From positions 1-46,442 of IMG/VR virus record IMGVR_UViG_3300033489_000016: a DNA stretch of 46,442 nt. The stretch is one strand, 5' to 3'. Below are positions 3,254-43,300 of the stretch, piece after piece; within the stretch, counting starts at the first letter, position 1; the number at the start of each line of letters is the position of its first letter. The translations under genes and the position numbers were made by a program. The stretch is from a virus (Duplodnaviria; Caudoviricetes). Under the pieces are notes generated by a model, which searched no databases, was not told the DNA's origin, and was given only the letters and a program-made list of their open reading frames with translations.

Positions 3254-3963
3254 TGGGCCTTCCTATTGTCGATACTTTATGCGGAGCGATTGATGCGGCT
3301 CAATTCGATTTGTGCATAACTTTTCCAGGTGCCGCGACGGTTTGCGCGTTTCCCCCGGGGTTTCCGCCAAGTTTGCTTGAACTCGCACGCTCTATGCTCG
3401 CGCAAGCCAGCGCGGCGATGGCACCGTTACAGCCTATTTTCGACATTATAGGCGCGATCGCGGCAGTGCTTAATTGCATTCAGGCGATTCCAGATACGAT
3501 AGGTCCCCCACCGAATCCAACCGCGCTTGCGGAGTGCATACCTAATCTTGTTGAGAAGGTGGAAAAGTTGCTGGCGTTGCTTCCTCAGGTGTCCATTCCG
3601 TTGATGATCGTCGGGTTGCTCGATACCTTGATTCTCATGCTTAGCGCGGTTATCGCGGAACTCCGCAGCGTGATTTATCTGCTCGAGCGGATTTCTCGTG
3701 CGCGCGGCGTACCCGCGCTTGGGTTGCTGGCAATTATCGATTGCGGAGAACGAACCGCTGCTGGTCAGATGAGCAACATTGAATCTCTGATCGCATCAAT
3801 AAATCCCGTGATCGAGTTGGTTAACGCGCTTGGCGGACTAGCGGGTATGGAACCCATCCCATCATTCGAAGGCGGGTTGGGCGACGATCCCCAAGCGGCG
3901 ATTGAACCCTTGGAAGATATAAGAAATTTCCTTGTTAGCTTCCGCAATAGCATTCCTGTATAG
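3253..3963 (+). CDS. Hypothetical hydrophobic helical virion protein
   Basis: 236 aa ORF coupled to the spike gene (TGATG); rich in Leu/Ile/Ala/Pro. Confidence 0.65.
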   Translation: MGLPIVDTLCGAIDAAQFDLCITFPGAATVCAFPPGFPPSLLELARSMLAQASAAMAPLQPIFDIIGAIAAVLNCIQAIPDTIGPPPNPTALAECIPNLVEKVEKLLALLPQVSIPLMIVGLLDTLILMLSAVIAELRSVIYLLERISRARGVPALGLLAIIDCGERTAAGQMSNIESLIASINPVIELVNALGGLAGMEPIPSFEGGLGDDPQAAIEPLEDIRNFLVSFRNSIPV

Positions 3964-7569: not shown

Positions 7570-8022
7570 TTAATCTACATACGTGCAGATACCGTGAGTC
7601 GCAACGCTCTCGACCGTATCGTACCCATACTCGTTCCAGAGTTTTTCATTCTGGTGTTGCGGGTCAGTCGTATTGTCAACGCATCGTGACATTAGATGGA
7701 TTATCTCGTGTATTAGAGTTGTGCCACGTTGGTATGAGTCCATGTCTGCCAGTATCTCTATCCGTTTTTTTTCTGGCAGAATGCAACCGATTCCGCCAGA
7801 TGGACAATCCGGATCGATGGTCTCGACATCAACGATCGCAAAGTCGTCCAGATCATCCGCGCACCTATTTATCAGCGCTCCACCCATTTTCGAAAACCAG
7901 GCGTCTAACGCAACCGCTATCGCATCCTCATAGCTCGGGTCGCACGGTGGCTCGTAGCGCGGTACGATGCACGATGAGCAGCACAATGATATCGACAAAA
8001 ACACGATTGATTTTAGGTTCAT
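7570..8022 (-). CDS. Moron-like putative lipoprotein with HExxH zincin motif
   Basis: MNLKSIVFLSISLCCSSC signal/lipobox-like N-terminus; TLIHEIIH motif; has its own promoter. Confidence 0.7.
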   Translation of the reverse strand: MNLKSIVFLSISLCCSSCIVPRYEPPCDPSYEDAIAVALDAWFSKMGGALINRCADDLDDFAIVDVETIDPDCPSGGIGCILPEKKRIEILADMDSYQRGTTLIHEIIHLMSRCVDNTTDPQHQNEKLWNEYGYDTVESVATHGICTYVD

Positions 8023-8042
8023 TTTCAATTTCCCTTTGTATA

Positions 8043-8071
8043 ATTATACTATGATTCGCAACAAACATCAA
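8043..8071 (-). promoter_or_regulatory. Sigma70-type promoter TTGATG-N17-TATAAT
   Basis: Minus strand TTGATG (8071-8066), 17 nt spacer, TATAAT (8048-8043), about 20 nt before the ATG at 8022. Confidence 0.75.
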
Positions 8072-8112
8072 TAACTAAAAATAGTGTAATATTACGCGCT
8101 TACAGGTGAGTT

Positions 8113-8460
8113 ATGGCAATCGAAAAACGAACACTAATGGCGGCGTTGACCGAGGTCGAAGTAGATGAACGAGCGTTGCAGCTCGAAGCGGTGCTCGTAC
8201 AAATCGACGAAAAGCGGGCCGAGGCAAAGGCGACGCTCTCAACAATGAGGGCAGAGCTTCGAGAGCTCGAACACGAGGCTGAGGTACTTCGGCGCGCTAT
8301 TCAATTTGGTTATGATCTGAAAGAAATTGATTGCGACGTGATAGAGGTTACTGCCAAATCGGTTACGCGCAAAGACACCGGTGCGTTCATTGAGTTTTTG
8401 CCTCTGGTCGTAGAAGCGGAGCCGATCGAAGAACCTCTGGTCGAGAAAAAGCCAAAATGA
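8113..8460 (+). CDS. Hypothetical coiled-coil phage protein
   Basis: AGGTGAG RBS; 115 aa charged helical ORF ending in an RKDTG-containing beta segment. Confidence 0.7.
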   Translation: MAIEKRTLMAALTEVEVDERALQLEAVLVQIDEKRAEAKATLSTMRAELRELEHEAEVLRRAIQFGYDLKEIDCDVIEVTAKSVTRKDTGAFIEFLPLVVEAEPIEEPLVEKKPK

Positions 8461-8481
8461 AAATAGACTGCAGTAACATTG

Positions 8482-8850
8482 TTATTTATCTATGTTTATT
8501 AATTGCTTGTATAGATAAGAAATGCCAGAGGCGCAATCGAGTACGATTACGCACCATTGTGCCAGTGTGAGGAGTGCCGATCGGTGTGCGATCAGCACCG
8601 CAGCGTAATCGGCGTTTGGGAGCTTGATAGTTAATTTGCGGGTACGCATTAATGGTTCATCCACATGTGGGCGCGAAACACGGGAGATGTCGGGGCGAGT
8701 CCCTTGGATAGCGGGGTTTGCAGCGCAGCGCAGCGCTCGGATTGCCCACGCGTGGCGGGATATTTTGTGAGCATTAGCTGCTGCTGAATACGCGTCAAGT
8801 TGTAGGTGCGATATGCGTAATGATATTGGCTTAGTTAGAATCGCCGGCAT
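8482..8850 (-). CDS. Putative tandem ribbon-helix-helix DNA-binding protein
   Basis: Two similar halves, ISLRISHLQLDAYSAAANAHKISRHAWAIRAL and LTIKLPNADYAAVLIAHRSALLTLAQWCVIVL, each with a beta-strand then helix-helix pattern. Confidence 0.5.
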   Translation of the reverse strand: MPAILTKPISLRISHLQLDAYSAAANAHKISRHAWAIRALRCAANPAIQGTRPDISRVSRPHVDEPLMRTRKLTIKLPNADYAAVLIAHRSALLTLAQWCVIVLDCASGISYLYKQLINIDK

Positions 8851-9245
8851 GGGTTCCGCCTATGCCGATCAATCTGAATCACGTTTTTCGGCAATACATT
8901 AGGTAGATACCCGCGCGATCTCATCCACTCGGACGATTCGGCCGCGGAAAACCCGAGCATTTGAATACCCGCCCACGCAGCTAGTAACGAATCCGATCGA
9001 TACACGGTCAGGATTTTTGCGACTTCGTACGCGGCTTGCCGACGCGCCAGAGGCTCGGAGATTCCTTCATTGATCGTGGAAGGGCTCAACGATGCATAGA
9101 TGATCTCGTGGTCGATGTCATCCCCCATCGCAATCGGCTGGACGATGTTGTTTGCGCGCTCACGAGCCTTGTCCTCCGGCAGATAATTCCGTAGTAGTTC
9201 TACAACTTCGCTCGTTGTTTGTTTTAGAGTAATAAGTTCATACAT
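8835..9245 (-). CDS. Hypothetical protein
   Basis: Strong AGGAGG RBS; 136 aa. Confidence 0.75.
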   Translation of the reverse strand: MYELITLKQTTSEVVELLRNYLPEDKARERANNIVQPIAMGDDIDHEIIYASLSPSTINEGISEPLARRQAAYEVAKILTVYRSDSLLAAWAGIQMLGFSAAESSEWMRSRGYLPNVLPKNVIQIDRHRRNPCRRF

Positions 9246-9282
9246 CTCTATTCCTCCTATTTAGTTTGTTTTTTATGTCCAT
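9238..9282 (-). pseudogene. 14-codon mini-ORF MDIKNKLNRRNRDV, probable relic of a third pentapeptide gene
   Basis: Follows the junction repeat and an AGGAG RBS. Its start resembles MEIKNK/MEIKNR of the two pentapeptide genes; its stop lies just inside the start of the next gene. Confidence 0.5.
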
Positions 9283-9304
9283 CTTATCTCTCCTATTATT
9301 TGTG

Positions 9305-9320
9305 GGCCTCACGGCCGGTT
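9305..9320 (-). repeat. Junction hairpin repeat, copy 1 (AACCGGCC-GTGA-GGCC)
   Basis: Direct match to the consensus; supplies the TGA stop of the upstream gene. Confidence 0.9.
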
Positions 9321-10037
9321 TTTTACAGCTGCGCACTCACGTGCTATCGCGAGTACAATAGATTTGTTAGCTCTCCACCAATCGAGCACGTTGATGCCCA
9401 TATTATTAATTTCCTCATCCGTGAAATTTGTCCATTCTGCCGTAGTGTGATACTCGCAGCCGATCCGGATATGCTCTCGCTGGATGTGGCAGATCGACCA
9501 GCGACAAATTAACACTCGATCGGTCAGTGGCAAATTTACCCTGGAGAGACAGGCTCCGGAGAGATCAGCTCCGGAGAGAATTGTATCGGAGAGATCGACT
9601 CTGGAGAGATAGGCTCTGGAGAGATTGGCTCTGGAGAGGTTAGCTCCGGAGAGATTGACTCCGGAGAGATAGGCTCTGGAGAGAATTGTATCGGAGAGAT
9701 TGGCTCTGGAGAGATCGGCTCTGGAGAGGTTAGCTCCGGAGAGATCGGCTCTGGAGAGATCAGCTCCGGAGAGAATTGTATCGGAAAGATTGACTCTGGA
9801 GAGATCGGCTCTGGAGAGATTGGCTCTGGAGAGGTTAGCTCCGGAGAGATTGGCTCCGGAGAGATAGGCTCTGGAGAGAATTGTATCGGAGAGATCGGCT
9901 CTGGAGAGATCGGCTCTGGAGAGGTTAGCTCCGGAGAGATTGGCTCCGGAGAGATCGACTCCGGAGAGATCGGCTCCGGAGAGATTGGCCTCTCGTGTAG
10001 TAATCAATATTACACCGTTTTTATTTTTGATTTCCAT
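9309..10037 (-). CDS. Pentapeptide repeat protein with conserved C-terminal domain (IGCEYH...EW...WW)
   Basis: About 30 A(N/D)LS(G/R) pentapeptides encoded by 15-bp tandem repeats; C-terminus paralogous to 10453-11010. Confidence 0.92.
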
Positions 10038-10055
10038 TTATTTCTCCTATTAGTT

Positions 10056-10130
10056 GGCCTCTTCGGCCGGTTGATCAATCTGCCCGTTGCGAGCCCGACC
10101 GAAGTCAGGCGCTCGCGGGAAGGGGGGTTA
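10056..10130 (-). repeat. Junction hairpin copy 2 (GGCC-GAAGA-GGCC) plus long stem-loop element A
   Basis: Minus strand: TAACCCCCCTT-CCC-GCGAGC-GC-CTGAC-TTCG-GTCGG-GCTCGC-AAC-GGG-CAGATTGATC-AACCGGCCGAAGAGGCC. Confidence 0.85.
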
Positions 10131-10167
10131 GCAGGCCTCCGCCCAACCACCACAATCGGGACAACCG

Positions 10168-10422
10168 CTAACACATGTAGTCGCCCAATTTCATCTTCTT
10201 CAACACACATTCCCGGCAGCCCCAAACGCTAAGCCCGTCATATGGATAACAGCGCACCCCGTGCCACACCTCGCCCACCTCTTTGCCGCACACGTCGCAC
10301 ACGCCATAACGTGCTGATGACGCATAGGTGCTATAGGCGTAATGACTTTTAGAGGCGGCCACCATCTCAGGGTGTCTTACCTGCCTGAGTTCGTGATCTA
10401 GTCCCGTTCTTGTTTTATCCAT
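10168..10422 (-). CDS. Small Zn-ribbon protein (CDVC...CREC)
   Basis: AGGAG RBS after the junction repeat; two CxxC pairs. Confidence 0.7.
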   Translation of the reverse strand: MDKTRTGLDHELRQVRHPEMVAASKSHYAYSTYASSARYGVCDVCGKEVGEVWHGVRCYPYDGLSVWGCRECVLKKMKLGDYMC

Positions 10423-10438
10423 TTATCTCTCCTATCAT

Positions 10439-10454
10439 GGCCTCGCGGCCGGTT
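10439..10454 (-). repeat. Junction hairpin repeat, copy 3 (AACCGGCC-GCGA-GGCC)
   Basis: The TAA stop of the upstream gene overlaps the AA of the repeat. Confidence 0.9.
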
Positions 10455-11010
10455 ATTTCTTATACGGCTCGCACTCGCGTGCTATCGCGAGTATAATGGT
10501 TTTATTAGCTCGCCACCAATCGAGCGCTAGTGGATCCATCTGCTTTATTTCGGCATCGGAGAAATTCTCCCACTCTGCCGTGGTGTGGTACTCGCAGCCG
10601 ATGCGGATGAATTCGCGCTGGATGTGGCAGATCGACCAACGAGAAATTAACACGCGATCGGTCAGTGGCAAATTTACCCTGTAGAGATTGGCCCTGTAGA
10701 GATTGGCCTTGGAGAGGTCGGCCTCGGAGAGATTGGCTACGGAGAGGTTGGCCTCGGAGAGATTGGCTCCGGAGAGATTGGCACCGGAGAGGTTGGCACC
10801 GGAGAGATTGGCTCCGTAGAGGACGGCCCGGGAGAGGTCGGCCTCGTAGAGATTGGCTCCGGAGAGATTGGCCTCGTAGAGATCCGCCTCGTAGAGATCC
10901 GCGCCCGCAAGATCCGCGCGCGAAAGATCCGCGCGCGAAAGATCCGCCTTTCGCGGCGTATCAGAGCTACTAGTATATATTATCTTACCATCTCTGTTTT
11001 TGATTTCCAT
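10453..11010 (-). CDS. Pentapeptide repeat protein, paralog of 9309-10037
   Basis: Start MEIKNRDG at 11010 behind AGGAG; about 19 pentapeptides; near-identical C-terminal domain. Confidence 0.92.
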   Translation of the reverse strand: MEIKNRDGKIIYTSSSDTPRKADLSRADLSRADLAGADLYEADLYEANLSGANLYEADLSRAVLYGANLSGANLSGANLSGANLSEANLSVANLSEADLSKANLYRANLYRVNLPLTDRVLISRWSICHIQREFIRIGCEYHTTAEWENFSDAEIKQMDPLALDWWRANKTIILAIARECEPYKK

Positions 11011-11029
11011 TTCATCTCTCCTATTACTT

Positions 11030-11128
11030 GGCCTCACGGCCGGTTAATCCATCTGCCCGTTGCGAGCCCGATTGCTCGGCTGGGGGCTCAGGCAACTACA
11101 CCCTGAGCCGATCGCCCAACGGTCGGGA
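11030..11128 (-). repeat. Junction hairpin copy 4 plus long stem-loop element B (three-way junction variant)
   Basis: Minus strand: CCGTTG...GGCTCAGG-GTGTAGTTG-CCTGAGCC...CCGA-GCAA-TCGG-GCTCG-CAACGGG-CAGATGGATT-AACCGGCCGTGAGGCC. Confidence 0.85.
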
Positions 11129-12196
11129 CTATGCCAGCGGCACAATCACTACCACGTCTACGCCGCCGACAGACCAGCAGATTTTCGCGGCATTAAATTT
11201 GTTACTTCTCACGGACTCCTCCTCGCCATCATCATCTTCCTCCGTGCTCTCATCCCAACAGAGTACGGCCGAAATTGTCGCGCCATCGGGCATCCCCGCC
11301 TCGGCCTTTTTTAGCGCGGCAAACTCGGCATTGGTTAGCTCCTCGGCTGTCTCACTATACGTGTATTTTGGATTTGGCTCGGGATAGCCGGCGTCATTCC
11401 GCAACATACATCTGATCGCCCGTAGCACCTCTTTTTCCGCCGCATAACCGGCTTCCGCACGCTCGCGCAACGACTGAGGCAATCGCGCGAACACCGCGGC
11501 ATACTCTGCCTCGACCAGCGCTTTCTCCGCGGCTTCCGCGCGTTCTTTTTCCGCGTCCGCGCGTTCTTTTTCCGCGCGCAGTGCCACCAATTGGGGGCCG
11601 ATCCTATCCTTGATTTCCTCGCGCGCGGCCTCAACGCGTTTCTCCGCGTCTTTCAGCAGCGCCTGTTTTTCCGGCGATGCTGAGTTGACGGTAGAGGTAG
11701 ATATAGGGATATGCGGCCACATCACGGCGATCCGGACATAGCCTCTCTCGTACGGGTAATAGTCGGGTTCTTCTCCTGACTCGCGGAGGAACAGAAACCC
11801 GTTTTCAAACATACCCCCTCTAGCCAATATCTCGTCGATTTTCCGATCGTTTTCTGCCCGATCGGCCTTGCGGCGTTCCTCTTTCACCGTCCAATCCATC
11901 AGGGCAGCCTGGTTTACCCGCACGACAGCCTCATGCAGGCCGTCCAACGTGGGCGCGATCAACTGGATGTGGTGATAGCCGTGATAAGACTGATCACCCC
12001 TGGCGATAGCGGGGAAGTCGTCGTATCGTATGCCCATTTTTGTACAATCGTGGCCGTCGTTAATTACGGCGGCCAAAATATCCCGCTCTAGCTGTGATAG
12101 CTCTGCCGGGTCCACGTCCAGCGTGACGGTACTGCTCGGCGCATTGATTCCGAGCCGAAGAGCTTCGGTCTGATTTACATTGAATAACATTTTCAT
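11129..12196 (-). CDS. Hypothetical protein with coiled-coil segments (355 aa)
   Basis: Long ORF; AGGAG RBS before the ATG at 12196. Confidence 0.8.
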   Translation of the reverse strand: MKMLFNVNQTEALRLGINAPSSTVTLDVDPAELSQLERDILAAVINDGHDCTKMGIRYDDFPAIARGDQSYHGYHHIQLIAPTLDGLHEAVVRVNQAALMDWTVKEERRKADRAENDRKIDEILARGGMFENGFLFLRESGEEPDYYPYERGYVRIAVMWPHIPISTSTVNSASPEKQALLKDAEKRVEAAREEIKDRIGPQLVALRAEKERADAEKERAEAAEKALVEAEYAAVFARLPQSLRERAEAGYAAEKEVLRAIRCMLRNDAGYPEPNPKYTYSETAEELTNAEFAALKKAEAGMPDGATISAVLCWDESTEEDDDGEEESVRSNKFNAAKICWSVGGVDVVVIVPLA

Positions 12197-12283
12197 TATA
12201 TTTCTCCTATTGTCGTCAATCTCAATACTCGCTTGTCTGTGGGTAGCGACGAGCACATCGATTGACTGTTTGTTTTTTTTTCC

Positions 12284-12331
12284 GATTCATGCTACCCGTG
12301 AGATCCAGCGAATTCGCCCGCTGAATCCGGA
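12284..12331 (-). repeat. Divergent long stem-loop element D (no GGCC core)
   Basis: Minus strand TCCG-GATTCAGCG-GGCGAATT-CGCTGGATC-T-CACGGG-TAGCATGAATC resembles CAACGGG-TAGATGGATTC of element C. Confidence 0.5.
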
Positions 12332-12350
12332 CGCGTAACACGCATCCTCC

Positions 12351-12620
12351 TTATTTCATGTTTGCCGCTTCTTTTTCTAACCCGATAGCTTCTTTGATGT
12401 GTTTCTTTACGCCCATACCACGCGCGGCTAATTCGCGTAATTGCGCGGCTCGCCTCAAAAGAACCTCCCGTTCCGTTGGCTGAACAGGAGCAGCCCGCCG
12501 CATGTTACCAAACAGTTCCTCGGCGAGCCGCTTCTGCGCCGCCCTTCTCGCCCTTCTCGACATCCGGCCATTCGGGCTACTGAGTGCTATACTCTCGACC
12601 ATCGTGTCTCGTTTATCCAT
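12351..12620 (-). CDS. Small basic hypothetical protein (89 aa)
   Basis: GAGGAG RBS after the junction repeat; start MDKRDTMVESIALSSPNG; Arg-rich and helical. Confidence 0.75.
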   Translation of the reverse strand: MDKRDTMVESIALSSPNGRMSRRARRAAQKRLAEELFGNMRRAAPVQPTEREVLLRRAAQLRELAARGMGVKKHIKEAIGLEKEAANMK

Positions 12621-12816
12621 CCCATTGCTCCTCTTTCTGGCCTCGCGGCCGGTTGATCCTCCATACAACACCTCGGACAACAAACCGGTGCGCCGCAACT
12701 ATTGCAGCGATTAATTAATTTAGTGCCGCAGTATTCACACCTTTCATCTATATGGGATGGCCATCCCATTCAGATAATTTATCAACTTGTTTTCCCGTGT
12801 ATTCGTCGTAATACAT
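12587..12816 (-). pseudogene. Small Cys-rich Zn-finger gene apparently broken by a 2-bp duplication
   Basis: MYYDEYTGKQVDKLSEWDGHPI then TAG (12750-12748). Removing AT from CCCATATAGAT fuses it to DERCEYCGTKLINRCNSCGAPVCCPRCC. Confidence 0.55.
12639..12654 (-). repeat. Junction hairpin repeat, copy 5 (AACCGGCC-GCGA-GGCC)
   Basis: Direct match; followed by AGAAAGAGGAG RBS. Confidence 0.9.
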
Positions 12817-12829
12817 TGATCCCCTTTCT

Positions 12830-12897
12830 GGCCTCACGGCCGTGGAATCCATCTACCCGTTGTGCGCCCCTCTCACAGGCGCTCGCGGGATGGGGGA
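12830..12897 (-). repeat. Junction hairpin copy 6 plus long stem-loop element C
   Basis: Minus strand, after the TAA stop: TCCCCCATCCCGCGAGCGCCTGTGAGAGGGGCGCACAACGGGTAGATGGATTCCACGGCCGTGAGGCC. Confidence 0.85.
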
Positions 12898-13071
12898 TTA
12901 GTCGGCGCAATCATCCTCCTGGCTCTTGCGCCGCCGCAACTCGCGTACAGCCGCTCGCCGATCCCACCCTAGCCTACTACCGTTATCGGCTGGCTGCCGG
13001 TGATATCCGGCGTCGTCCTCATACGCTACATAGTACCCATTCGCGCCTTCATATATTTTGTAGATACTCAT
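12898..13071 (-). CDS. Small hypothetical protein (57 aa, not in the ORF track)
   Basis: MSIYKIYEGANGYYVAYEDDAGYHRQPADNGSRLGWDRRAAVRELRRRKSQEDDCAD; GAGG RBS; exactly fills the space between two junction elements. Confidence 0.75.
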   Translation of the reverse strand: MSIYKIYEGANGYYVAYEDDAGYHRQPADNGSRLGWDRRAAVRELRRRKSQEDDCAD

Positions 13072-13087
13072 TTTATCCTCTTTTTCT

Positions 13088-13103
13088 GGCCTCGCGGCCG
13101 GTT
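13088..13103 (-). repeat. Junction hairpin repeat, copy 7 (AACCGGCC-GCGA-GGCC)
   Basis: Overlaps the TAA stop of the HNH gene. Confidence 0.9.
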
Positions 13104-13494
13104 ATTGTTTTCTCGTTTTTCGAATTTTTTCAAGGCGCCGACCCTCGACTCTATCGAGCGGCCGGCGCACCAACGCGCGAATCCGGCGCGCAACGCGACT
13201 CGCGTTAATCCCGCGCGCCCTCAACCGCCCCAGCCACCCGCGCGTCGTGAGAGCCTGTTTTGCCGAGTTGCAGTGCGCGCGCGCTGTCACCAGATTACTC
13301 GGGTCGTTGCTCCCGCCGAGCTCCACTGGTACCAAATGGTCCAATGTCAACCCTACCCCATGCTCCTCACCCGCGGCCCCGCAATAAACGCAACAGAATC
13401 CGTCCCGGTGATAAATCGCAAGCCTCGTCGACAGCCTCACCCAATTCATGCCCTGCCCATCGATTCGTTTTCCGGTTCCGCGCTCGCTCTGCAT
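13102..13494 (-). CDS. HNH endonuclease-family protein, first gene of the reverse island
   Basis: RLAIYHRDGFCCVYCG...LTLDHLVPVELGGSNDPSNLVTARAHCNSAK; the ATG at 13494 fits a leaderless transcript. Confidence 0.85.
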   Translation of the reverse strand: MQSERGTGKRIDGQGMNWVRLSTRLAIYHRDGFCCVYCGAAGEEHGVGLTLDHLVPVELGGSNDPSNLVTARAHCNSAKQALTTRGWLGRLRARGINASRVARRIRALVRRPLDRVEGRRLEKIRKTRKQ

Positions 13495-13500
13495 AATTAC

Positions 13501-13529
13501 AGTATGGCGCACGCCATACCGCAAATCAA
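13501..13529 (-). promoter_or_regulatory. Sigma70-type promoter TTGATT-N17-CATACT with overlapping palindromic operator
   Basis: -35 at 13529-13524, -10 at 13506-13501; inverted repeat GTATGGCG-CA-CGCCATAC at 13502-13519. Confidence 0.7.
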
Positions 13530-13620
13530 CAAAACACCAACTCATCGATGTTGATTTAAAAACAGATGTTCAGTATCAGCGCGCGGTGACTTAACAGAAT
13601 CGGTTTGCTATTCTCCTTTA

Positions 13621-14046
13621 ATGGCGTGCGGACACGAGGAGGTTTACGGCGGTGCTGGAATAGTTCCGGGAGGACTGTCGGCTGCGGGGCTTTCGGGGTT
13701 ACTTACAATATCGATTGATTCGGTTAATCCCGAAATCAAAAATTTTGTACCAGCCATAGGATCCGTGATTGGAAGGACGGATTACGTCCAATTTGATGTA
13801 ACTGATGACACGTCCGAATTTACGATAATTTTTGTAATTGCTAGTTTCCCAGACGGATCGTGTGAGTGTGTGTGGGATGGCGATTCATTTCGTCCTCGGT
13901 ATTTAGCGGGATCGTCTCGGGTACCCATTGAATGTGGATTCCGTTTTACGATTCGGCGAACGGGTGGTTGGCCCAGCGCATCGATTCTGGTTGAAACAAC
14001 TGCTATAGATCGTGGCTGTAACGTTGGTGTAGGAGTGTTTTCATGA
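13621..14046 (+). CDS. Hypothetical Ig-like virion protein
   Basis: Beta-rich 141 aa ORF coupled (ATGA) to the gp25-like gene. Confidence 0.6.
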   Translation: MACGHEEVYGGAGIVPGGLSAAGLSGLLTISIDSVNPEIKNFVPAIGSVIGRTDYVQFDVTDDTSEFTIIFVIASFPDGSCECVWDGDSFRPRYLAGSSRVPIECGFRFTIRRTGGWPSASILVETTAIDRGCNVGVGVFS

Positions 14047-25684: not shown

Positions 25685-25711
25685 TTTACGATTGCAAATT
25701 GGAGGTTGGGT

Positions 25712-28264
25712 ATGGCTGGCGAGACATTAAGTTGGCAGGACAAATTGGCGGCGGCGCGCTTGATGGCAATCATGAAGTGGCCTTGGATGCGCGTGGCGTT
25801 GTTCTCTCTGATTCCTAAACCCGCGCAGGGTTTGGGGACGCTCGGCGTAACCTACGATGGGATCATGCATGTCGATCCCGCTGCGATCGAACGATGGACC
25901 GTACCTGAGATCGCGGCGGCGGTTATCCATGAGGTCACACACGTTTTGCGGGAACATAATATTCGAGGGGCTGCTATTGGCGCTTATCCGAAACCTTGGA
26001 ATCTTTCGTGTTTTCCTGGAGATGTACTGCTCGAAAACGGGGAACAAATCAAAACCGCGCGTAATACAGCGCGCGAATTTTCTGGGGAACTTATTGAAAT
26101 ATTCACACAAGTAGGATCACTCGCGGCAACGCCGGAACACCCGCTGCGCGCACGTATTAGAAAACACAAAGTTGGGATTAATCCTGTTATTTTACGTGAT
26201 GCGGTTTGGCGCGAAATTGCAGAATTACGTGTTGGCGATTATGTGCTCGTGCCGTGTTTACGGAAAATAGACGCGAACTCGATTGATTTGCAGCCTTTCA
26301 TACAAAAAGGACACGATTCAAAAGGGCGCGCCACGTTCGGAAACCGTGCGATTAAAACATTAGATATTACCCCCGACCTCGCGTGGTTGATCGGTTTATG
26401 GGTTGCAGAAGGAAGTGCAAGCCCTCCAGTTCAATTTTCGTTGGGTGCACATGAACTTCAGATCATCGAACGCGTAAAATCTATTGCTTCTACGCTAGGC
26501 TACCATTCTTCACAAAGCGTTCGTGACAATAGCGTAAGCGTTACACTTGGTAGCGTAGTGTTTGGAAGGTGGCTTAAATTTAATTGCGGTTCGGGCGCGC
26601 ATAATAAACGTGTTCCGAATTTCATTTTACACCATCCCGATAAAGATATTCGATCCGCATTTCTTAGCGGATTACTCATGGGAGATGGGTGTGTAAGAAT
26701 TCAAGGTAAAAAACGATGGGGAATAATAAGCACGGTTTCATCTGCGTTGGCTAATGGCGTGATCCTCCTTCTTGCACAAGATGGTATTGGGGCGCATCGA
26801 TCGATCATGACTAAAGGTCCTAGACAAATAGGCGCATCATTTACACATAAAAATCTTAAGCTGTATAGGATCGCTTATAATTTAGATGGTGTAAGTTATT
26901 CAACCCGTATAATGAAGGGGCATGAGGTAAAAGCGCGCCACGGTCGATGGAAATCTAACGACGAGGGTGTTTGGTATCCAATTAAACGTGTAGTTAAAAA
27001 AGAGTTTAAAGGTGCTGTTTATAATTTGGTGAATACACCTGATCATGTTTATGTTGCTAATTCACTATTAGTTCATAATTGCGACGCTGAAATTAATGAT
27101 GATCTTCAAAGTGCGGAGTGGACACTTCCAGGGCAACCATGCGTACCGGAACATTTCGGACTTCCGCGGGGGTTAACTGCAGAGGAATACTACGCCTCGA
27201 TTCGAATTATTAAATTCCCCTCATCTCAGAAGGGTGGATCAGGCGAAGGGGATTCTTCCGAATCTGATGGCATTGGCGGCGGCGGTTCCGCCGAATCAGA
27301 AGAAAACCCAGAGAATGGAAATGGACAGGAATCAGGCGATAGGGATTCCGCGGAAACGTCAGACGAAACAGGCGGGGGTTCTTCCCCTTCCGATGGTTCC
27401 GGAAGTTCTGCCGGCACGGGAAGCTGCGACAAGCCTGCGGTCGGGCAGGGATGGTGTGGTTCGTGTGGCGGGCGCGCGCTTCCGGGCGAGGAAGAATCGC
27501 GAAAGGAGGTTGGAGGCGGACGATCGAAAAGTGAAATGAGTGGTATTCGCCGACAAACCGCTGAAGCTATTCGCGACATAGAAGAGAAAAGTCGCGGAAC
27601 GGTTCCCGCCAACTGGGCGCGTTGGTCCAATGAACAATTGCTTCCGCCTAAAATCGATTGGCGCACGAAGCTCGCCAGGCTTTGCAGGAATTTCGTGGCA
27701 CGACGCGCGGGTGCGGTGGATATGAGTTACCACAAACCATCGCGAAGACAGGCGGGGCTTGGGTACGGTAATGGCCACGCCGTACTTCCCGCCTACTTCG
27801 CACCGGTTCCCCGCGTCGCAATCATGGTCGACACAAGTGGATCCATGAGCAAAGGGGATTTACTGCGCGCGGTGTCCGAAAGCGAGGGTGTAATGAAAGC
27901 GATTGGATCCGAAATCGCTTTCTTTTCGTTGGACGCCAAGGTTCACACGGTTTCGAAGGTTCGAACGGCACGTGAGTTAGCGAACAAACTCGTTGGCGGC
28001 GGGGGTACAGACTTTGCGCCTGGATTCGAGGAGCTCGGCAAGCTCCCAATACACGAGCGGCCGAAGATCGTCGTATTCATGACCGATGGCTACGGGCCCG
28101 CCCCGCTAAATCCGCCAGTTGGCGTCGACACGATTTGGGTTTTGATTGGCGAGAAATGTCGAAAACCTTGGCCGCATGGTAATGCGAACGTTGCGCTATC
28201 CTGGGGATCGTTTGTGGAGGTCGATAATGACTGCAAGGAAACGCAAGCGAGTCTCATTGGTTGA
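25712..28264 (+). CDS. DUF2201-type metallopeptidase plus VWA domain protein, intein-containing
   Basis: GGAGG RBS then ATG at 25712; HEVTH...WNLS/CDAEIN; acidic Gly/Ser linker; IDWR; MIDAS motifs DTSGSM, GGGTDF, FMTDGY. Confidence 0.88.
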   Translation: MAGETLSWQDKLAAARLMAIMKWPWMRVALFSLIPKPAQGLGTLGVTYDGIMHVDPAAIERWTVPEIAAAVIHEVTHVLREHNIRGAAIGAYPKPWNLSCFPGDVLLENGEQIKTARNTAREFSGELIEIFTQVGSLAATPEHPLRARIRKHKVGINPVILRDAVWREIAELRVGDYVLVPCLRKIDANSIDLQPFIQKGHDSKGRATFGNRAIKTLDITPDLAWLIGLWVAEGSASPPVQFSLGAHELQIIERVKSIASTLGYHSSQSVRDNSVSVTLGSVVFGRWLKFNCGSGAHNKRVPNFILHHPDKDIRSAFLSGLLMGDGCVRIQGKKRWGIISTVSSALANGVILLLAQDGIGAHRSIMTKGPRQIGASFTHKNLKLYRIAYNLDGVSYSTRIMKGHEVKARHGRWKSNDEGVWYPIKRVVKKEFKGAVYNLVNTPDHVYVANSLLVHNCDAEINDDLQSAEWTLPGQPCVPEHFGLPRGLTAEEYYASIRIIKFPSSQKGGSGEGDSSESDGIGGGGSAESEENPENGNGQESGDRDSAETSDETGGGSSPSDGSGSSAGTGSCDKPAVGQGWCGSCGGRALPGEEESRKEVGGGRSKSEMSGIRRQTAEAIRDIEEKSRGTVPANWARWSNEQLLPPKIDWRTKLARLCRNFVARRAGAVDMSYHKPSRRQAGLGYGNGHAVLPAYFAPVPRVAIMVDTSGSMSKGDLLRAVSESEGVMKAIGSEIAFFSLDAKVHTVSKVRTARELANKLVGGGGTDFAPGFEELGKLPIHERPKIVVFMTDGYGPAPLNPPVGVDTIWVLIGEKCRKPWPHGNANVALSWGSFVEVDNDCKETQASLIG
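26009..27079 (+). mobile_element. Intein with LAGLIDADG homing endonuclease (357 aa)
   Basis: Starts CFPGD, has TPEHP block B, LIGLWVAEG and FLSGLLMGDG motifs, ends LLVHN/C; AT-richer than its flanks. Confidence 0.92.
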
Positions 28265-33253: not shown

Positions 33254-35158
33254 ATGATTTTAAAACTGTCTAACCTACTCACGACAGTCGAATGCACTGA
33301 CGAAGAGTTCGACTGGATCTTTGACTATCTATCGTTCGAAAGTAAATTCTTCCGGCCGACAAAGGGGCAATATACGATCGAGCGGATTCGGCTGTTTAAT
33401 CGATCGGCGATGACCTTTCCAACCGGCTTCGTTTCAATGGTGGAAAAGACGGCCGCGGCTAAAGGATTCCCGATTGTAAAGGAAGATAAACGTGTCAAGC
33501 CCATCGCGAGAGATCCTAATGCGGATCTCAGTTGGCTGCGCGATTACCAACTGGAGGCGGCTAAAATCGCTTCGCAGCGTACACGAGGGATTCTTTGGAT
33601 TCCAACCGGAGGCGGCAAATGTCTTGGCATAGGAACACGTGTGATCAAGTACGATGGCAGCCTCGTTGCTGTCGAGGACTTGCGCGTGGGCGATATGCTA
33701 ATGGGACCCGATTCCTGTGGTAGAACAGTGCAATCAGTGACGCGTGGCGCGGGCCCCTTGTTTCGCATCGATCCCAGAAATTCAAACCCGCTGTCATGGG
33801 TTTGTAATGATGCTCACGTACTCACGTTGATCGGCGCAAAGGGGCCGATGAGGAAAATCATTGATACCCCTCTAACCAAGTTCATGAAGTTAAAGTCGGG
33901 GCATGATTACTACAAGTTGTTTAGCGTAGACGTTTCATTCGACCCTCCCACAGGATCCGGGTTTCCTAAGATTGCGCCCGTGATCGTTAACAAGAATTAC
34001 AACTTCAGCATCACGCCAATCGGAGAGGGCGAGTACGCGGGGTTTACGCTCGATGGGGATGGCCGTTTCCTGCTCGAGGATCTGACGGTTACGCACAACA
34101 CGGAGGTCGGAATCGCGATGGCGCTAGCCTACCCGTGTCCATGGGTATTCATCGTGCATCGCGCAACGTTGTTGCAGCAAGCCGCAGAGCGTTGGGAGAA
34201 ACGTAGTGGAGAGCCCGCCGGATGTATTGGCGACAAGGTTTTCAAAATCCATCGTTTCAATGTGGCGACCTTCCAGACGCTACTCTCCCTTGTAAAGCAA
34301 CGCCGTACGAATCCTAAAGATATTAAAGTCCAGATGTTTTCGGATCTGGTAAACACAACAGGAGGAATGATTGTTGACGAGTCTCACGTTCTTCCCGCGA
34401 GAAACTACTCCCTCGTCGCGATGCGATTCAAAAACGCATACTGGAGAATTGGTCTTTCAGGAACCCCGTTATCGCGCGGCGATCGCAGAAGCCTCATGGC
34501 GATTGGGACTCTTGGACCTGTCATCTACCGTTTGATGCCCAACACACTGATCAAACAAGGAGTGCTCGCCCGTCCAGATATCCGTATCGTCGACACGTTT
34601 GGAACGAGCACTTCGGATCGCTACACTTCAATTTACGGCTCAACGGTTATTCGGAACACAGAGCGGAACGAACTGATAACGGAAATTGCGAAGATCGCAG
34701 ACAAGCCATCGTTAGTATTTGTCAAATCGCTGAAGCACGGAAAACACCTGCTTGATCGGTTCAAACGTGTCGGCCTAAACGCGGAATTCATTTGGGGCGC
34801 GGCTTTATCAGTGAAACGCAGGGCTGCGGTTGAGCGACTCGTGCGCGCGGAAATCGATGTTTTAATCACGTCAGTTATTTTTCAGGAAGGCGTCGACATA
34901 CCGGAGCTTCGTTCTGTTGTCATTGCAACAGCGGGTAAAAGCGTGATTGCGGCGATCCAAAGAATCGGGCGCGGCATGCGAATGTCTGCAGGAAAGAATG
35001 GTGTTTTTCAGGTCTGGGACTTCTACGACTACGGTCACCGTGTCATGGAAAACCATTCTGCCGGTAGGATAAAGGCGTACAAGAAGGAGGGCTACGAAGT
35101 TCTTCGAATCAAAACGTTGGATCAACTCCAGTTGAATTTAGGTAGCCAGTCGAGGTAG
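33254..35158 (+). CDS. SF2 DExH helicase (UvsW/XPB-like), intein-containing
   Basis: LRDYQ, PTGGGK/T, IVDESH, GLSGTP, EGVDIP and QRIGRGMR motifs. Confidence 0.92.
   Translation: MILKLSNLLTTVECTDEEFDWIFDYLSFESKFFRPTKGQYTIERIRLFNRSAMTFPTGFVSMVEKTAAAKGFPIVKEDKRVKPIARDPNADLSWLRDYQLEAAKIASQRTRGILWIPTGGGKCLGIGTRVIKYDGSLVAVEDLRVGDMLMGPDSCGRTVQSVTRGAGPLFRIDPRNSNPLSWVCNDAHVLTLIGAKGPMRKIIDTPLTKFMKLKSGHDYYKLFSVDVSFDPPTGSGFPKIAPVIVNKNYNFSITPIGEGEYAGFTLDGDGRFLLEDLTVTHNTEVGIAMALAYPCPWVFIVHRATLLQQAAERWEKRSGEPAGCIGDKVFKIHRFNVATFQTLLSLVKQRRTNPKDIKVQMFSDLVNTTGGMIVDESHVLPARNYSLVAMRFKNAYWRIGLSGTPLSRGDRRSLMAIGTLGPVIYRLMPNTLIKQGVLARPDIRIVDTFGTSTSDRYTSIYGSTVIRNTERNELITEIAKIADKPSLVFVKSLKHGKHLLDRFKRVGLNAEFIWGAALSVKRRAAVERLVRAEIDVLITSVIFQEGVDIPELRSVVIATAGKSVIAAIQRIGRGMRMSAGKNGVFQVWDFYDYGHRVMENHSAGRIKAYKKEGYEVLRIKTLDQLQLNLGSQSR
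33620..34099 (+). mobile_element. Mini-intein (160 aa, no endonuclease) in the helicase P-loop
   Basis: GK/CLGIGT...CNDAHVL...GFTLDGDGRFLLEDLTVTHN/T. Confidence 0.92.
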
Positions 35159-40312: not shown

Positions 40313-43300
40313 ATGGAGTTATTGCGCCTATACGATTCCGCGCCTTTGGAGGTTGTGGAAAAGACCGCGCCCTTGTGTGTTTCTTCTCAATGTACTCTTT
40401 GTAATCTACACGAGCGGGTGCGGTCTTCGTGTATGCGTGCCGAGGGAGATTCTGGCGGGGTGCTCCTCGTTGGAGATTACCCGGGAGCTGAGGAAGATCG
40501 TACGGGTATTCCATTTAGCGGGCCAACAGGAAAATACCTGAGAAAGTTAGTGGCGCGATGGTGGTCCGGTCCTGTGGCGTATGACAATGCACTTCGCTGT
40601 TTTCCTGGGGAACGCCCAACGAGTACTGCGATGGTTGACTCGTGTCGCGGGTATCTCGCGGCAACGATTCGAGAGGTCAAGCCCACGGTGATCGTGGCAA
40701 TGGGGGGTCGCGCGATATACGGGGTGCTCGGGCGTACTCTTCCACTTCAGTCTGTGCGGCGAGGTTACGGGTGGCTGTACAACACAGATATCGATCCCAT
40801 TTCAGGAATGCCTATTCCGGTATTTGAACTCATTAATCCCGTTAACGCGCTTAGGAATAGATTTATCAGGATCAGTTTCGAAGAGGACTTGAAAGTAGCA
40901 TTATCGGGTGCGCCTCTCACGCAGCCCCCATGGGGTGGCGTCGTTAGTGTTATTGAGACGTATGCCGACGCGTGCGCGGCCGCCTCTGACTTGCGCGCTG
41001 CGGAATGGTTATCTTTCGACTGCGAAACAATTGGGGTTCAGTATCATCCCGATTTTAGAAATATTAGCATGGCCTGTTGCGCGCGAGGTTCCGACCATTC
41101 TTACGCATGGGATTCGCGCGCGCTACGAGACAAGGAGCTTGTTGCGCCGTTGCTCGATCTTCTAAAGGACGATCGTGTTAAAAAGATTGGTAGCAATCTT
41201 AAGTACGATGCTCATTCAGTTGCTTGCGAATACCACGTTACTCTAAGAAACCATTTTTGGGATACGCGTTTATGCCGCAAGCTTTTAGATGCCGACGCGG
41301 ATGCATCGCTCGAGGTGATGTGCGAGCTTGTTGGTATGGGCGGAATGAAAAAGGAGGCCGAAGACGCATTGATCGTGGCGGTTCGTCAGATCGTTAAGGC
41401 GCGTGTGGCTTGCCGTAAATCATTGCTGTTTCCGTTTGAGAATCCCGTGATCCTTGCCGCGTGTAAACGTGTAGATGTTGAACCGAAGCGCTATGCTTTT
41501 GGATTGCTTGCCCGCAAAATACTTCTTCGGTACAACGCACGCGATGCTGTCTCGACTGCGAGGCTTGGCGTTTTGCTAGGGGATCGGCTTGAAGAGACAC
41601 CTCCCGTAAAGCGTATTTGGACGAAGGTGGTGCGTGGCGCGAGCTACGCAATACAGCGCGTAGAGGAATGGGGGATGCCCGTAAGCCGCGATAGCGTCGA
41701 GCTTTTCATTAGGCGTTTAGAGATAGCAGCTTCCTCCGCGGCGCTTAAGTTTAATGGCTACCCTAATTTTAATCCTCGTAGTTCTCAAAGTGTATTGAAC
41801 CTGTTATTTGGCCAGCTTCACTTGAAGCCCGTCAAGCTGCTGGTTTCTGGCGCGTCCTCGACCGATCAGGATTCGTTGAAGGAATTGGCGGGATCTCATC
41901 CAGTGGTTGATGCGCTTATCGAGTACAGGCGTCTCGATAAACTTCTCGGTTTTGCCCGTGGTTTGCAGGAGCATATTAGTCCCGATGGGCGTATACACCC
42001 ATCTATCAATATTGATGGTGCGCGTACTGGCAGAACGAGCTGTATCGCAAAGGGAACACCGATTGAAGTGTTGCGCGATGTGGCCGCTATTCCCGCAGGG
42101 GTTCCAATTGAACAAGTTAGTGTGGGCGATTGGGTGTGGACATATTCCATAGACGGCACGCCAACACTTCGGCGCGTTGTTCGCGTATTTGCGAACGGCG
42201 CGCGGCGGATCGCACGCGTGCATTGGAGGGGGCAGGGGGGTTATTCGCGCGGGTTTTTAGACCTAACACCCGATCATCGCGTTAGGATGATGAATGGTAC
42301 GTATGTGCGCGCGGCTGACCTAAAGTGTGGTGATCGAATTAGCGCCGTTACGCGGAATGTGACGAATAGCGGTTACGCGCGTTTATATTTTACGGGCGTA
42401 AAGCACGCCATTAGGGAACATTGCCGCATAGGTGAATTTTTGCGTGGAGGGCCCTTCGAACATTGCCATCATGTTGATGGTAATAAGTTGAATAACGTTC
42501 CACATAATATTGTTGGAATGGATGCTATTGCGCATTTAACTTTACACGCGAATAGTATTCCCGAAGGATTGCGCGTTCGCCGCTCCGAAGTGATGCGCGA
42601 ACGTCATCGTCTTGGGCGTATTAGATATTTGCGCGGTGAGGAGAATGCTCGTTGGAAAAGGTTAACGAAAGCGACGGCGCTTTTTTTATTGCGTGCCAAT
42701 AGATGGTCGATTTCCTTGGCTGCGCGATCGGCAGGGTGGGATTTTGCGACGTTTAGAAAGCATCTGACCTTGCTTGGATTTGATTGCGAAGAAATAAAAT
42801 TGCGTAGTCGGCGCAAGCGGCGAGATTCAATTTTACGCGCGGCCGCGTTTGCGCGGTCAGTACGCTTAGGAAATAATCACATTGTTGAATCAATAGAATT
42901 TTTAAATAGATCGGCACTCGTCTACGACCTTGAAATTGACGGTACGCATAATTATTTTGCGGGAGGAATTTGCGTACACAATTGCTCTGCTCCGAATTTA
43001 CAAAATATAGCCAGGCCTCGCGATCCTGAATCCAAAATGGCGCGGGATTTGTTTGTGGCGAATCCGCACCACAAATTGGTGTCATTTGATTATAGCCAAC
43101 TTGAATTGCGTATCGCTTCGATGATGTCCGGTGACCCCGAGATGCTTGCTATTTGGGCTGCTGGTTTGGATTACCATCAGCGTACGGCGGAACTGATTGC
43201 CGATGTCGCTTGGGGACTTAGGGTGGATCAGCTACTGCCAATTCATCGCGATCAAAGTAAAACCGTTAACTTCGGGGTTTTGTATGGAATGGCCGCCAAG

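Follow-up and report, generated by a model that had tools for sequence, protein, structure and literature searches.

How can a run of small, mostly family-less phage genes come to exchange its members one at a time, and what is the purpose of the short hairpin that stands before most of them? The question is raised by a 46,442-nt stretch of tailed-phage DNA (Caudoviricetes; IMG/VR record IMGVR_UViG_3300033489_000016, positions 1 to 46,442; called the window below), which is a complete record (G000). It represents some 42% of the genome of a phage and encodes contractile-tail proteins, a helicase, a primase and PolA. Between its tail-fibre region and its baseplate genes, on the minus strand and opposite in direction to the tail genes, lies an island of about 5 kb of small genes. 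A preliminary description of this island had noted a repeated GGCC-GNRA-GGCC hairpin, here called H, at the gene borders and had taken it for an RNA-level signal and/or a recombination joint for shuffling genes. With a probability of roughly 55%, we propose that H and a second folded element, E, are mRNA punctuation signals, and that, as direct repeats, they allow single genes to be removed, added or replaced by the ordinary recombination of phages.

The window contains seven copies of H, all on the minus strand: H1 (13088..13103, loop GCGA), H2 (12830..12845, loop GTGA, leader CCAC), H3 (12639..12654, GCGA), H4 (11030..11045, GTGA), H5 (10439..10454, GCGA), H6 (10056..10072, with the pentaloop GAAGA) and H7 (9305..9320, GTGA). 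GCGA and GTGA loops thus occur three times each and GAAGA once; the leaders other than CCAC are TAACC in three copies, CAACC in two and AAACC in one. The stem has 4 bp and is identical in all seven copies. Each copy has its 3' end 4-10 nt before a Shine-Dalgarno sequence (SD) and 13-22 nt before an ATG. Upstream genes can end inside the hairpin, as the TAA of TAACC stops both the HNH gene (in H1) and pentapeptide gene A (in H5), and the loop of H7 supplies the TGA of pentapeptide gene B. On all these points (the seven sites, the deviating loop at 10056 and leader at 12830, the ribosome-binding site and ATG after each copy, the stop-codon overlaps) the preliminary description was accurate, as it was in confining the motif to the array. 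GGCC-N3-6-GGCC matches the window nine times against 2.6 expected, a number reached in none of 100 shuffles; seven of the nine lie within 3.8 kb, and the other two (19593 and 22493) lack a GNRA-type loop. A general scan of the window for a hairpin followed by SD and ATG gave eight sites, seven of them the H copies, and allowing one mismatch added just one H-like site, also within the island. H is present at 7 of the 10 array junctions.

Whole units differ between related phages at the borders formed by H and E. We focused in particular on a group (A) comprising the window, the loci L110 and L111, and a complete 45-kb phage (G001). The search that gave L110 and L111 returned nine loci, of which three were the window's own, one was a repeat of G001 and three were chance matches in cellular genes; the remaining two were used. 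Over 77 nt ending at 13087, one base beyond H1, L111 and the window agree in every letter, and they then diverge. L111 rejoins the window at the TAA that opens E1 (12900), with 99 nt identical from 12854. In place of the 57-aa ORFan cassette of the window (12898..13071, minus strand), L111 has three genes, encoding 68, 89 and 73 aa, plus a relic, with E variants between them. L110 has three H copies and an E, with cargo that differs again. G001 has one E+H between unrelated genes, and its genes showed no similarity to the tail genes of the window by tblastn; a RecE-like exonuclease adjoins its array, and its early region holds, separate from E+H and without H, a homolog (60% identity) of the 136-aa ORF of the window array (8835..9245, minus strand). 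Within the window, pentapeptide-repeat gene A (185 aa, PF00805; 10453..11010, minus strand) and its duplicate, gene B (242 aa; 9309..10037, minus strand), belong to cassettes that are homologous from a point inside E onwards, and this homology stops exactly at the final base of H5 and H7.

Alternative units were also found to coexist. Assembled contigs were compared for two runs, X1 (a possible source of the window) and X2 (same sample code). X1 holds both paths at H1, where a depth of 17.7 divides into 11.1 for the window type and 6.4 for the L111 type, and the L111-type end reappears at 12900 at a depth of 5.4; cover was lacking at 11014-12770, which was not used. An apparent X1 joint between 12901 and 13087, with 306 letters between, was discounted as the window's own E3-H5 segment. 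X2 offers further paths, with E1 followed by a canonical H, and loose ends at 10131 and 11029 that lead into other sequence. A 737-nt record of X2 has the pentapeptide start directly after an H5-type end, which is weaker evidence because the joint was called at 85% likeness. The window and L111 probably come from one population.

Unit-wise differences are not limited to group A. Each member of group B (G002, G003 and L131) has three H copies ahead of a common gene C and a GP88 gene, in the orders H-A-H-B-H-C, H-X-H-Y-H-C and H-Z-H-X-H-C. Gene X thus occupies slot 1 or slot 2; the homology blocks begin at H, and a TAA overlaps H at 4 of the 6 junctions. In group C (L324 and L378), a common HNH gene is followed by H with a GCCC/GGGC stem and then by differing cargo, the identity ending 2 nt past the H stem. 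In four other records (G044, G046, G047 and G048), perfect H copies all point the same way and lie close together, within 0.5-2 kb. Different cargo between conserved repeats, as the preliminary description had predicted for related contigs, is therefore found in three phage groups; gene order is not fixed, breakpoints do not lie away from the repeats and the motif is not common elsewhere in the window, all of which supports its proposal of a joint for unit-wise cargo exchange. A separate observation in group B concerns the non-coding region before the arrays (L070/L071), which contains tandem GC-rich repeats of 10-11 nt and T-tract repeats.

The breakpoints could in principle arise with passive repeats, if H were only a translation or stability signal and illegitimate recombination were tolerated solely at gene borders. 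Gene-border illegitimate recombination is a standard model (PMC3029335), and passive repeats would suit both the single H found before many genes, core genes included, and the H-less homolog of the 136-aa gene in G001. They leave unexplained, however, why seven identical-stem copies lie in 3.8 kb with none elsewhere in 46 kb, why a duplication ends on the last base of H, how gene X moved between slots, and how a copy of E passed between a myophage of the ~110-kb type and a phage of 45 kb. We therefore consider this explanation quite unlikely.

In order to determine how far H extends beyond these groups, we scanned the viral collection for AACC, four G/C, GNRA, four G/C, SD and ATG, pairing of the arms not being required. 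The scan gave 111 distinct matches from 37 of the 64 parts of the collection. Stems were perfect in 66 matches, with 13 different stem sequences, GCCC/GGGC being the commonest. With relatives merged, 56 of 96 groups had a perfect stem, against a mean of 9.2 and a maximum of 22 in 10,000 arm shuffles; the stems of H covary across phages. GGCC-GNRA sites were followed by SD and ATG in 19/136 cases, versus a background of 2.2% and 1/135 on the opposite side, and GNYA-loop sites in 4/84 (p=0.04 against 19/136). Among hairpins other than the bait, an SD followed 8/172 GNRA loops versus 44/4,099 other loops; half of these eight GNRA cases have AAC just upstream, and most of the eight lie in arrays found through a bait match. 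The upstream stop codon was the TAA of TAACC in 11/66 perfect versus 2/45 imperfect cases. Raw 16-mer counts in viral contigs (64 and 95) were close to the GNYA control (105), so that most single 16-mer matches are due to chance and only the SD-linked fraction is informative. H is thus maintained as a fold of the sense strand, in a constant position relative to the ribosome-binding site that follows, and stem covariation, SD-linked GNRA excess and strand bias support the sense-strand selection suggested previously.

Downstream proteins could be assessed for 65 of the 66 perfect matches, the remaining protein being too short. No PHROG matched 45 of them, 8 belong to a family of unknown function, 6 are virion proteins and 6 act in DNA metabolism. 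Because 12/65 fall into the last two categories, H is mainly, not only, tied to small orphan genes. The preliminary description had taken the repeats for an uncharacterised cassette system; the exchange joint stands, but H is not special to this phage, being one stem variant of a widespread gene-start hairpin. Both the exchange role and the breadth of H are stronger than had been supposed. A short-motif BLAST search of cultured phages gave isolated hairpins ahead of genes, as in Ruegeria phage RpAliso and Microbacterium phage Barnstormer, and no array. Two kinds of locus met in the scans stand somewhat apart. A microvirus-like locus (L394:3001-3030) has an AACC-GNRA hairpin before a gene for a small DNA-binding protein, and L146 (two sites), L188 and L199 look hammerhead-ribozyme-like by eye, a GGCC-GCAA-GGCC hairpin forming one stem.

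What kind of signal the hairpin represents was considered next to these data. A boxB-like site, for antitermination or another RNA-binding protein that keeps early-operon transcription running, is suggested by the GAAGA loop and the sense-strand fold, and the commonest class stem, GCCC/GGGC, presumably resembles that of lambda boxB. Lambdoid boxB has a 5-bp stem and a GNRNA pentaloop, however, whereas H stems have 4 bp and six of the seven loops in the window are tetraloops; moreover, processive antitermination does not need an RBS-linked site at nearly every junction. An N-like gene or boxA was not noticed, no search having been aimed at them. The boxB-type antitermination raised in the preliminary description was not borne out, and we regard it as highly improbable. 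We give still less credence to H as a double-stranded operator for a ribbon-helix-helix (RHH) protein or as a terminator for the opposing tail-operon transcript. An RHH-like gene does close the array, and two H copies score terminator-like on the plus strand, but the other five fail that scan. Variable loop length and covarying stems speak against a double-stranded DNA site, no RHH homolog was found by tblastn in G001 or the group B loci, and a better operator candidate overlaps the putative promoter (see below). On the sense strand no H or E passes a terminator scan, the sequence downstream being A-rich and not U-rich. Rfam covariance models gave no match in the window (best E 4.2) and none in 8 loci at the gathering score. 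Ribozyme folds (hammerhead, hepatitis delta virus-like, hairpin) were rejected by eye as their conserved cores are absent, and N4-type hairpin promoters, extracytoplasmic-function sigma promoters, Chi-like sites and restriction-site decoys were set aside as incompatible both with a sense-strand GNRA fold and with variable stems.

Three of the window H copies are preceded by E, a folded element of ~60 nt that the preliminary description had missed. E1 (12846..12900) begins with the stop codon of the 57-aa ORF and forms the right breakpoint of L111, E2 (11046..11092; 19.8 bits, E 0.006) has a degenerate 5' half, and E3 (10073..10131) has a C-UUCG-G apical loop; all three are on the minus strand. 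A model built on six copies, with a structure consensus from RNAalifold, found eight sense-strand copies in 11 sources (three each in the window and L111, one each in L110 and G001). Six of the eight begin at or directly after the upstream stop codon, and in six H follows directly. The consensus structure of E comprises 21 pairs, among them an invariant U-G pair and two that are changed on both sides, and 92% of the cells are paired; apical loops are UUCG or AUCG in 4/6 copies, and the ends pair as AATCC/GGATT in 5/6. Among 22 other records E was found in one (G001), and further searches gave no new locus. RNase III sites lie between early genes of T7 and SPO1, and E resembles them in being an irregular hairpin of ~20 bp between early genes, one that begins at a stop codon. 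RNase III-type sites are typically irregular intergenic duplexes of some two helical turns, and E has this form, its structure being derived from the same sequences. We know of no report of T7 or SPO1 RNase III sites as exchange points or as partners of GNRA hairpins. Degenerate, truncated and H-less E copies also exist. In one of these, on the minus strand of L111 (642-700), a truncated E is joined to H by a 5-nt sequence common to both, which suggests a deletion by microhomology.

Such decayed copies, together with stems that are invariant within groups A and B, would be expected if H and E had no RNA role and persisted solely because they provide homology for recombination, with duplication and gene flow keeping them uniform. 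Covariation over 13 stems, GNRA bias, strand bias and a fixed position before the SD in unrelated phages would be unexpected on that account, which we hold to be very unlikely.

The GNRA preference, the UUCG loops and the U-G pair point to RNA, and H and E would then act as folds in the mRNA. A single early transcript would span the island. Judging from its fold, E is a probable processing site for an RNase III-type (double-strand-specific) enzyme, and H probably guards the resulting RNA end and uncouples translation from the upstream gene, so that a gene would be expressed wherever it is inserted. Crossing-over or slippage between co-oriented copies of H (16-20 nt) or E+H (~75 nt) would delete, duplicate or swap units, most likely with the help of annealing proteins and exonucleases and not of a dedicated recombinase, and every gain of a unit would add another H. 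For both halves of this proposal there is a precedent, as attC hairpins block ribosome movement and affect downstream translation (PMC8876359), and shuffling is mediated by promoter(early)-stem-loop elements (PeSLs) in other phages (PMC2839356).

Several points weigh against punctuation signals that double as recombination joints. Assembly through repeats can join haplotypes, and the gene order of the window may be one path through a branched assembly. Since unrelated genes start next to H, breakpoints at this place are to some extent expected in any case. A length of 16 nt is short for homologous recombination, and stems vary inside some arrays (L378, L328), which lowers the homology. When the stem was disrupted in silico, the SD did not become consistently more or less accessible, and with 40 upstream nt included H is predicted to be unformed in two of the seven window copies (P 0.06-0.07). 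Two group-B copies have GGAG loops, and H in group B ends 4-7 nt before the ATG, holds SD-like bases and has no separate SD, a poor fit to insulation; a few of the GNYA sites look genuine. The GGAG and GNYA cases would also be compatible with a fold of single-stranded DNA. As for E, its score was reached by 14/500 shuffles, a modest level of support, its covariation amounts to two columns over six related copies with none in the lower stem, and single copies fold no better than shuffles (z -0.07 to -2.1).

A fold of single-stranded DNA is central to a different explanation, structure-directed cassette recombination, in which H (and E) would be cut or synapsed in an attC-like manner by a dedicated protein, either the HNH protein or a host factor. 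It is kept mainly because of the HNH link: genes of the same HNH subfamily head the arrays of the window, L324 and L378, and in the prophage locus L442 such a gene is followed directly by an AACC-GNRA hairpin. In addition, as in integron cassettes, the stop codon at the end of a unit overlaps AAC/AAT; the size, internal loop and bulges of E are attC-like; and the fold is kept while stems vary, even inside arrays. On the other hand, H follows just 1/6 HNH loci found without using the motif, and an HNH homolog was not found in the group B, G001, L357 and L328 loci (the loci, not whole genomes, being searched). A tyrosine recombinase was absent from four of five records (G000, which is 42% complete, G001, G047 and G048), and the integrase of the fifth, G046, sits in a lysogeny-type module among repressor/excisionase-like ORFs. 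A Y1 transposase was found in 0/5 records, two of them incomplete, with a control positive in 6/14 genomes. The GTTRRRY core of attC sites (PMC8876359), which has its inverse at the other end of the palindrome, is not present in the ends of E, and H has AAC without a GTT partner. H also precedes virion and replication genes (12/65). We thus judge a dedicated enzyme to be unlikely. The same holds for its bolder form, an integrase-free counterpart of the integron in which a universal micro-joint defined by its fold (AAC + GNRA hairpin) and read by the HNH subfamily or a conserved host factor would give phages that share a host, though unrelated, access to one pool of cassettes from which single early genes are traded.

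Compared with known systems, the H/E array works like PeSL shuffling, and it is neither a PeSL array, nor an integron, nor a set of start-associated sequences (SAS). PeSLs of T4-type phages carry a sigma-70 promoter in each copy and a stem-loop shown to terminate, within ~100 conserved bp (PMC2839356, PMC4122927). Common features are repeated intergenic elements that span from the upstream stop to the SD/ATG, a G/C stem-loop, clustering among ORFans, relatives that differ by element-bounded units, as observed here, and no dedicated recombinase identified. In contrast, H is 12-16 nt long and promoterless, its GNRA hairpin comes without a sense-strand U-tract, and it is spread over many phages unrelated to each other; mini-circles have been shown for PeSLs, whereas the present array was studied in assembled contigs. 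A PeSL-like unit does occur in the same region of G001 as its E+H: a duplicated unit of ~70 nt (L053:2370-2440 and 3680-3750), with a near-consensus sigma-70 promoter and a ribosome-binding site, joins early genes.

Linker or boundary sequences (PMC2839356, PMC3029335) are likewise short conserved sequences at gene borders, proposed as exchange sites, and according to PMC3029335 they could not be found at most mosaic borders. Here, by contrast, gene borders are marked by a specific fold that covaries and is linked to a ribosome-binding site, and exchange is seen between coexisting haplotypes. Integrons, too, have units of one gene each that lack a promoter of their own and depend on one at the head of the array; their joints are palindromes placed after the stop codon, and some units are fused or relics (PMC8876359). 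Three of the arrays described here, however, have HNH instead of an integrase at the head, and H is far shorter than any attC. SAS and extended SAS (ESAS) of Cluster K mycobacteriophages (PMC3203893) are also repeats in one orientation before non-structural gene starts, with a longer element at about half of the copies; 7/7 copies in the window conform to this, and class-wide 6/65 precede virion genes. The SD is part of the SAS, whose 13-nt sequence is fixed, and ESAS repeats are reported as unpaired in RNA. H, by contrast, is a covarying hairpin of other sequence that in group A stands 5' of a distinct SD, and E does form pairs. The preliminary description was therefore right to set the motif apart from both PeSL and SAS. 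Repetitive extragenic palindromes and IS200-IS605 elements differ through their Y1 HUH transposase, which was not found in the five array records (two incomplete). Nothing relevant was met in the examined passages of the phiCbK paper (PMC3556154). No description of the H motif was found in the literature, which is not proof of novelty as most subscription papers were outside reach.

Whether phage mosaicism proceeds via conserved boundaries or by illegitimate recombination only is an old question, with PeSLs as the main worked case. H is a far smaller, promoterless joint, present in uncultured phages that are unrelated to each other; its breakpoints are defined to the base and alternative units coexist, probably in one population, so that the linker model becomes directly testable on plasmids. 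H is also a simple tag for exchangeable early genes, mostly without a family (45/65), that are candidates for host-takeover or counter-defence screens, and it may be an unrecognised element of translation or mRNA stability.

The array genes, all on the minus strand, begin with the HNH endonuclease (13102..13494) and end with a tandem RHH-like ORF (8482..8850), an order given in the preliminary description and confirmed by family match for the former and predicted fold for the latter. In the window HNH, a nearly invariant Zn-ligand Cys is replaced by Arg (place 13281); the Cys is kept in the X2 haplotype. The subfamily has >120 clusters with a conserved basic C-terminal part and often stands first after a promoter. 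The HNH proteins of L324 and L378 are 93% identical to each other and 48% identical to that of the window over 73 aa. A search of cultured phages found generic HNHs only, and the named source of one HNH relative is a Polyangiaceae assembly, a weak host hint only. The RHH-like ORF has a feature score of 0.93 and a TM of 0.65-0.75 to RHH/NikA-like clusters, with no Pfam or PHROG match.

Also as described previously, the array contains a duplicate pentapeptide pair, a relic ORF and a frameshifted pair. The probable frameshifted gene (12587..12816) consists of a 22-aa ORF (12816-12748) that overlaps a Cys-rich 60-aa ORF in another frame (12769-12587) and reads through H3; run X2 covers 11491-12854, including this pair, with no alternative letter. 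It is followed by an 89-aa ORFan without a family (12351..12620) and a 17-codon relic ORF (12292..12345) at a junction without H, where the relic has its own hairpin and is faintly like the 3' end of E, unscored by the E model. A 355-aa ORFan (11129..12196) has no family and no usable atlas match. An 84-aa Cys-rich ORF (10168..10422) lies between the two pentapeptide genes, and a 14-codon relic that resembles pentapeptide gene starts (9238..9282) precedes the 136-aa ORF. PADLOC gave only generic HNH matches and one weak repeat-protein match on the cargo.

That one promoter drives the array was not borne out: a sigma-70 scan of 7900-13800 gave 4 sites versus 5.1 expected, with one 9/12 site just before H1 and none at the other six H. 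By eye, and below the scan threshold, there is a candidate sigma-70-type promoter at 13501..13529 (minus strand, 8/12 matches, 17-nt spacer). The HNH ATG lies 7 nt past its candidate -10 box, which would make the transcript near-leaderless. A clear sigma-70-type promoter was also seen by eye before the HNH gene of L324. An 8-bp inverted repeat (13502..13519), operator-like and single in the window, covers the spacer and -10 box and is a candidate operator for the tandem RHH protein.

The position of the island was analyzed in 38 loci with related baseplate genes, obtained by alignment search; a search with single proteins found no tail relatives. Array cargo was present between the flanking tail genes in 0/38 relatives, the sole exception being a weak HNH match 8 kb upstream in L086, and the island is therefore a lineage-specific insertion that splits the tail operon, as had been claimed. 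The exact H 12-mer is absent from 36 of the 38 and occurs as a single copy anywhere in the record in the other two.

The tail fibre and the array are separated by two more orphan genes, one per strand (7570-8028 and 8113-8460), and X1 and X2 contigs bypass parts of the second. Elsewhere in the window, a DUF2201 gene (25706-28264) contains an intein carrying a LAGLIDADG domain, a helicase (33254-35158) has a Hint domain, and PolA (40313-44956) is fused to a uracil-DNA-glycosylase-like domain and also contains an intein.

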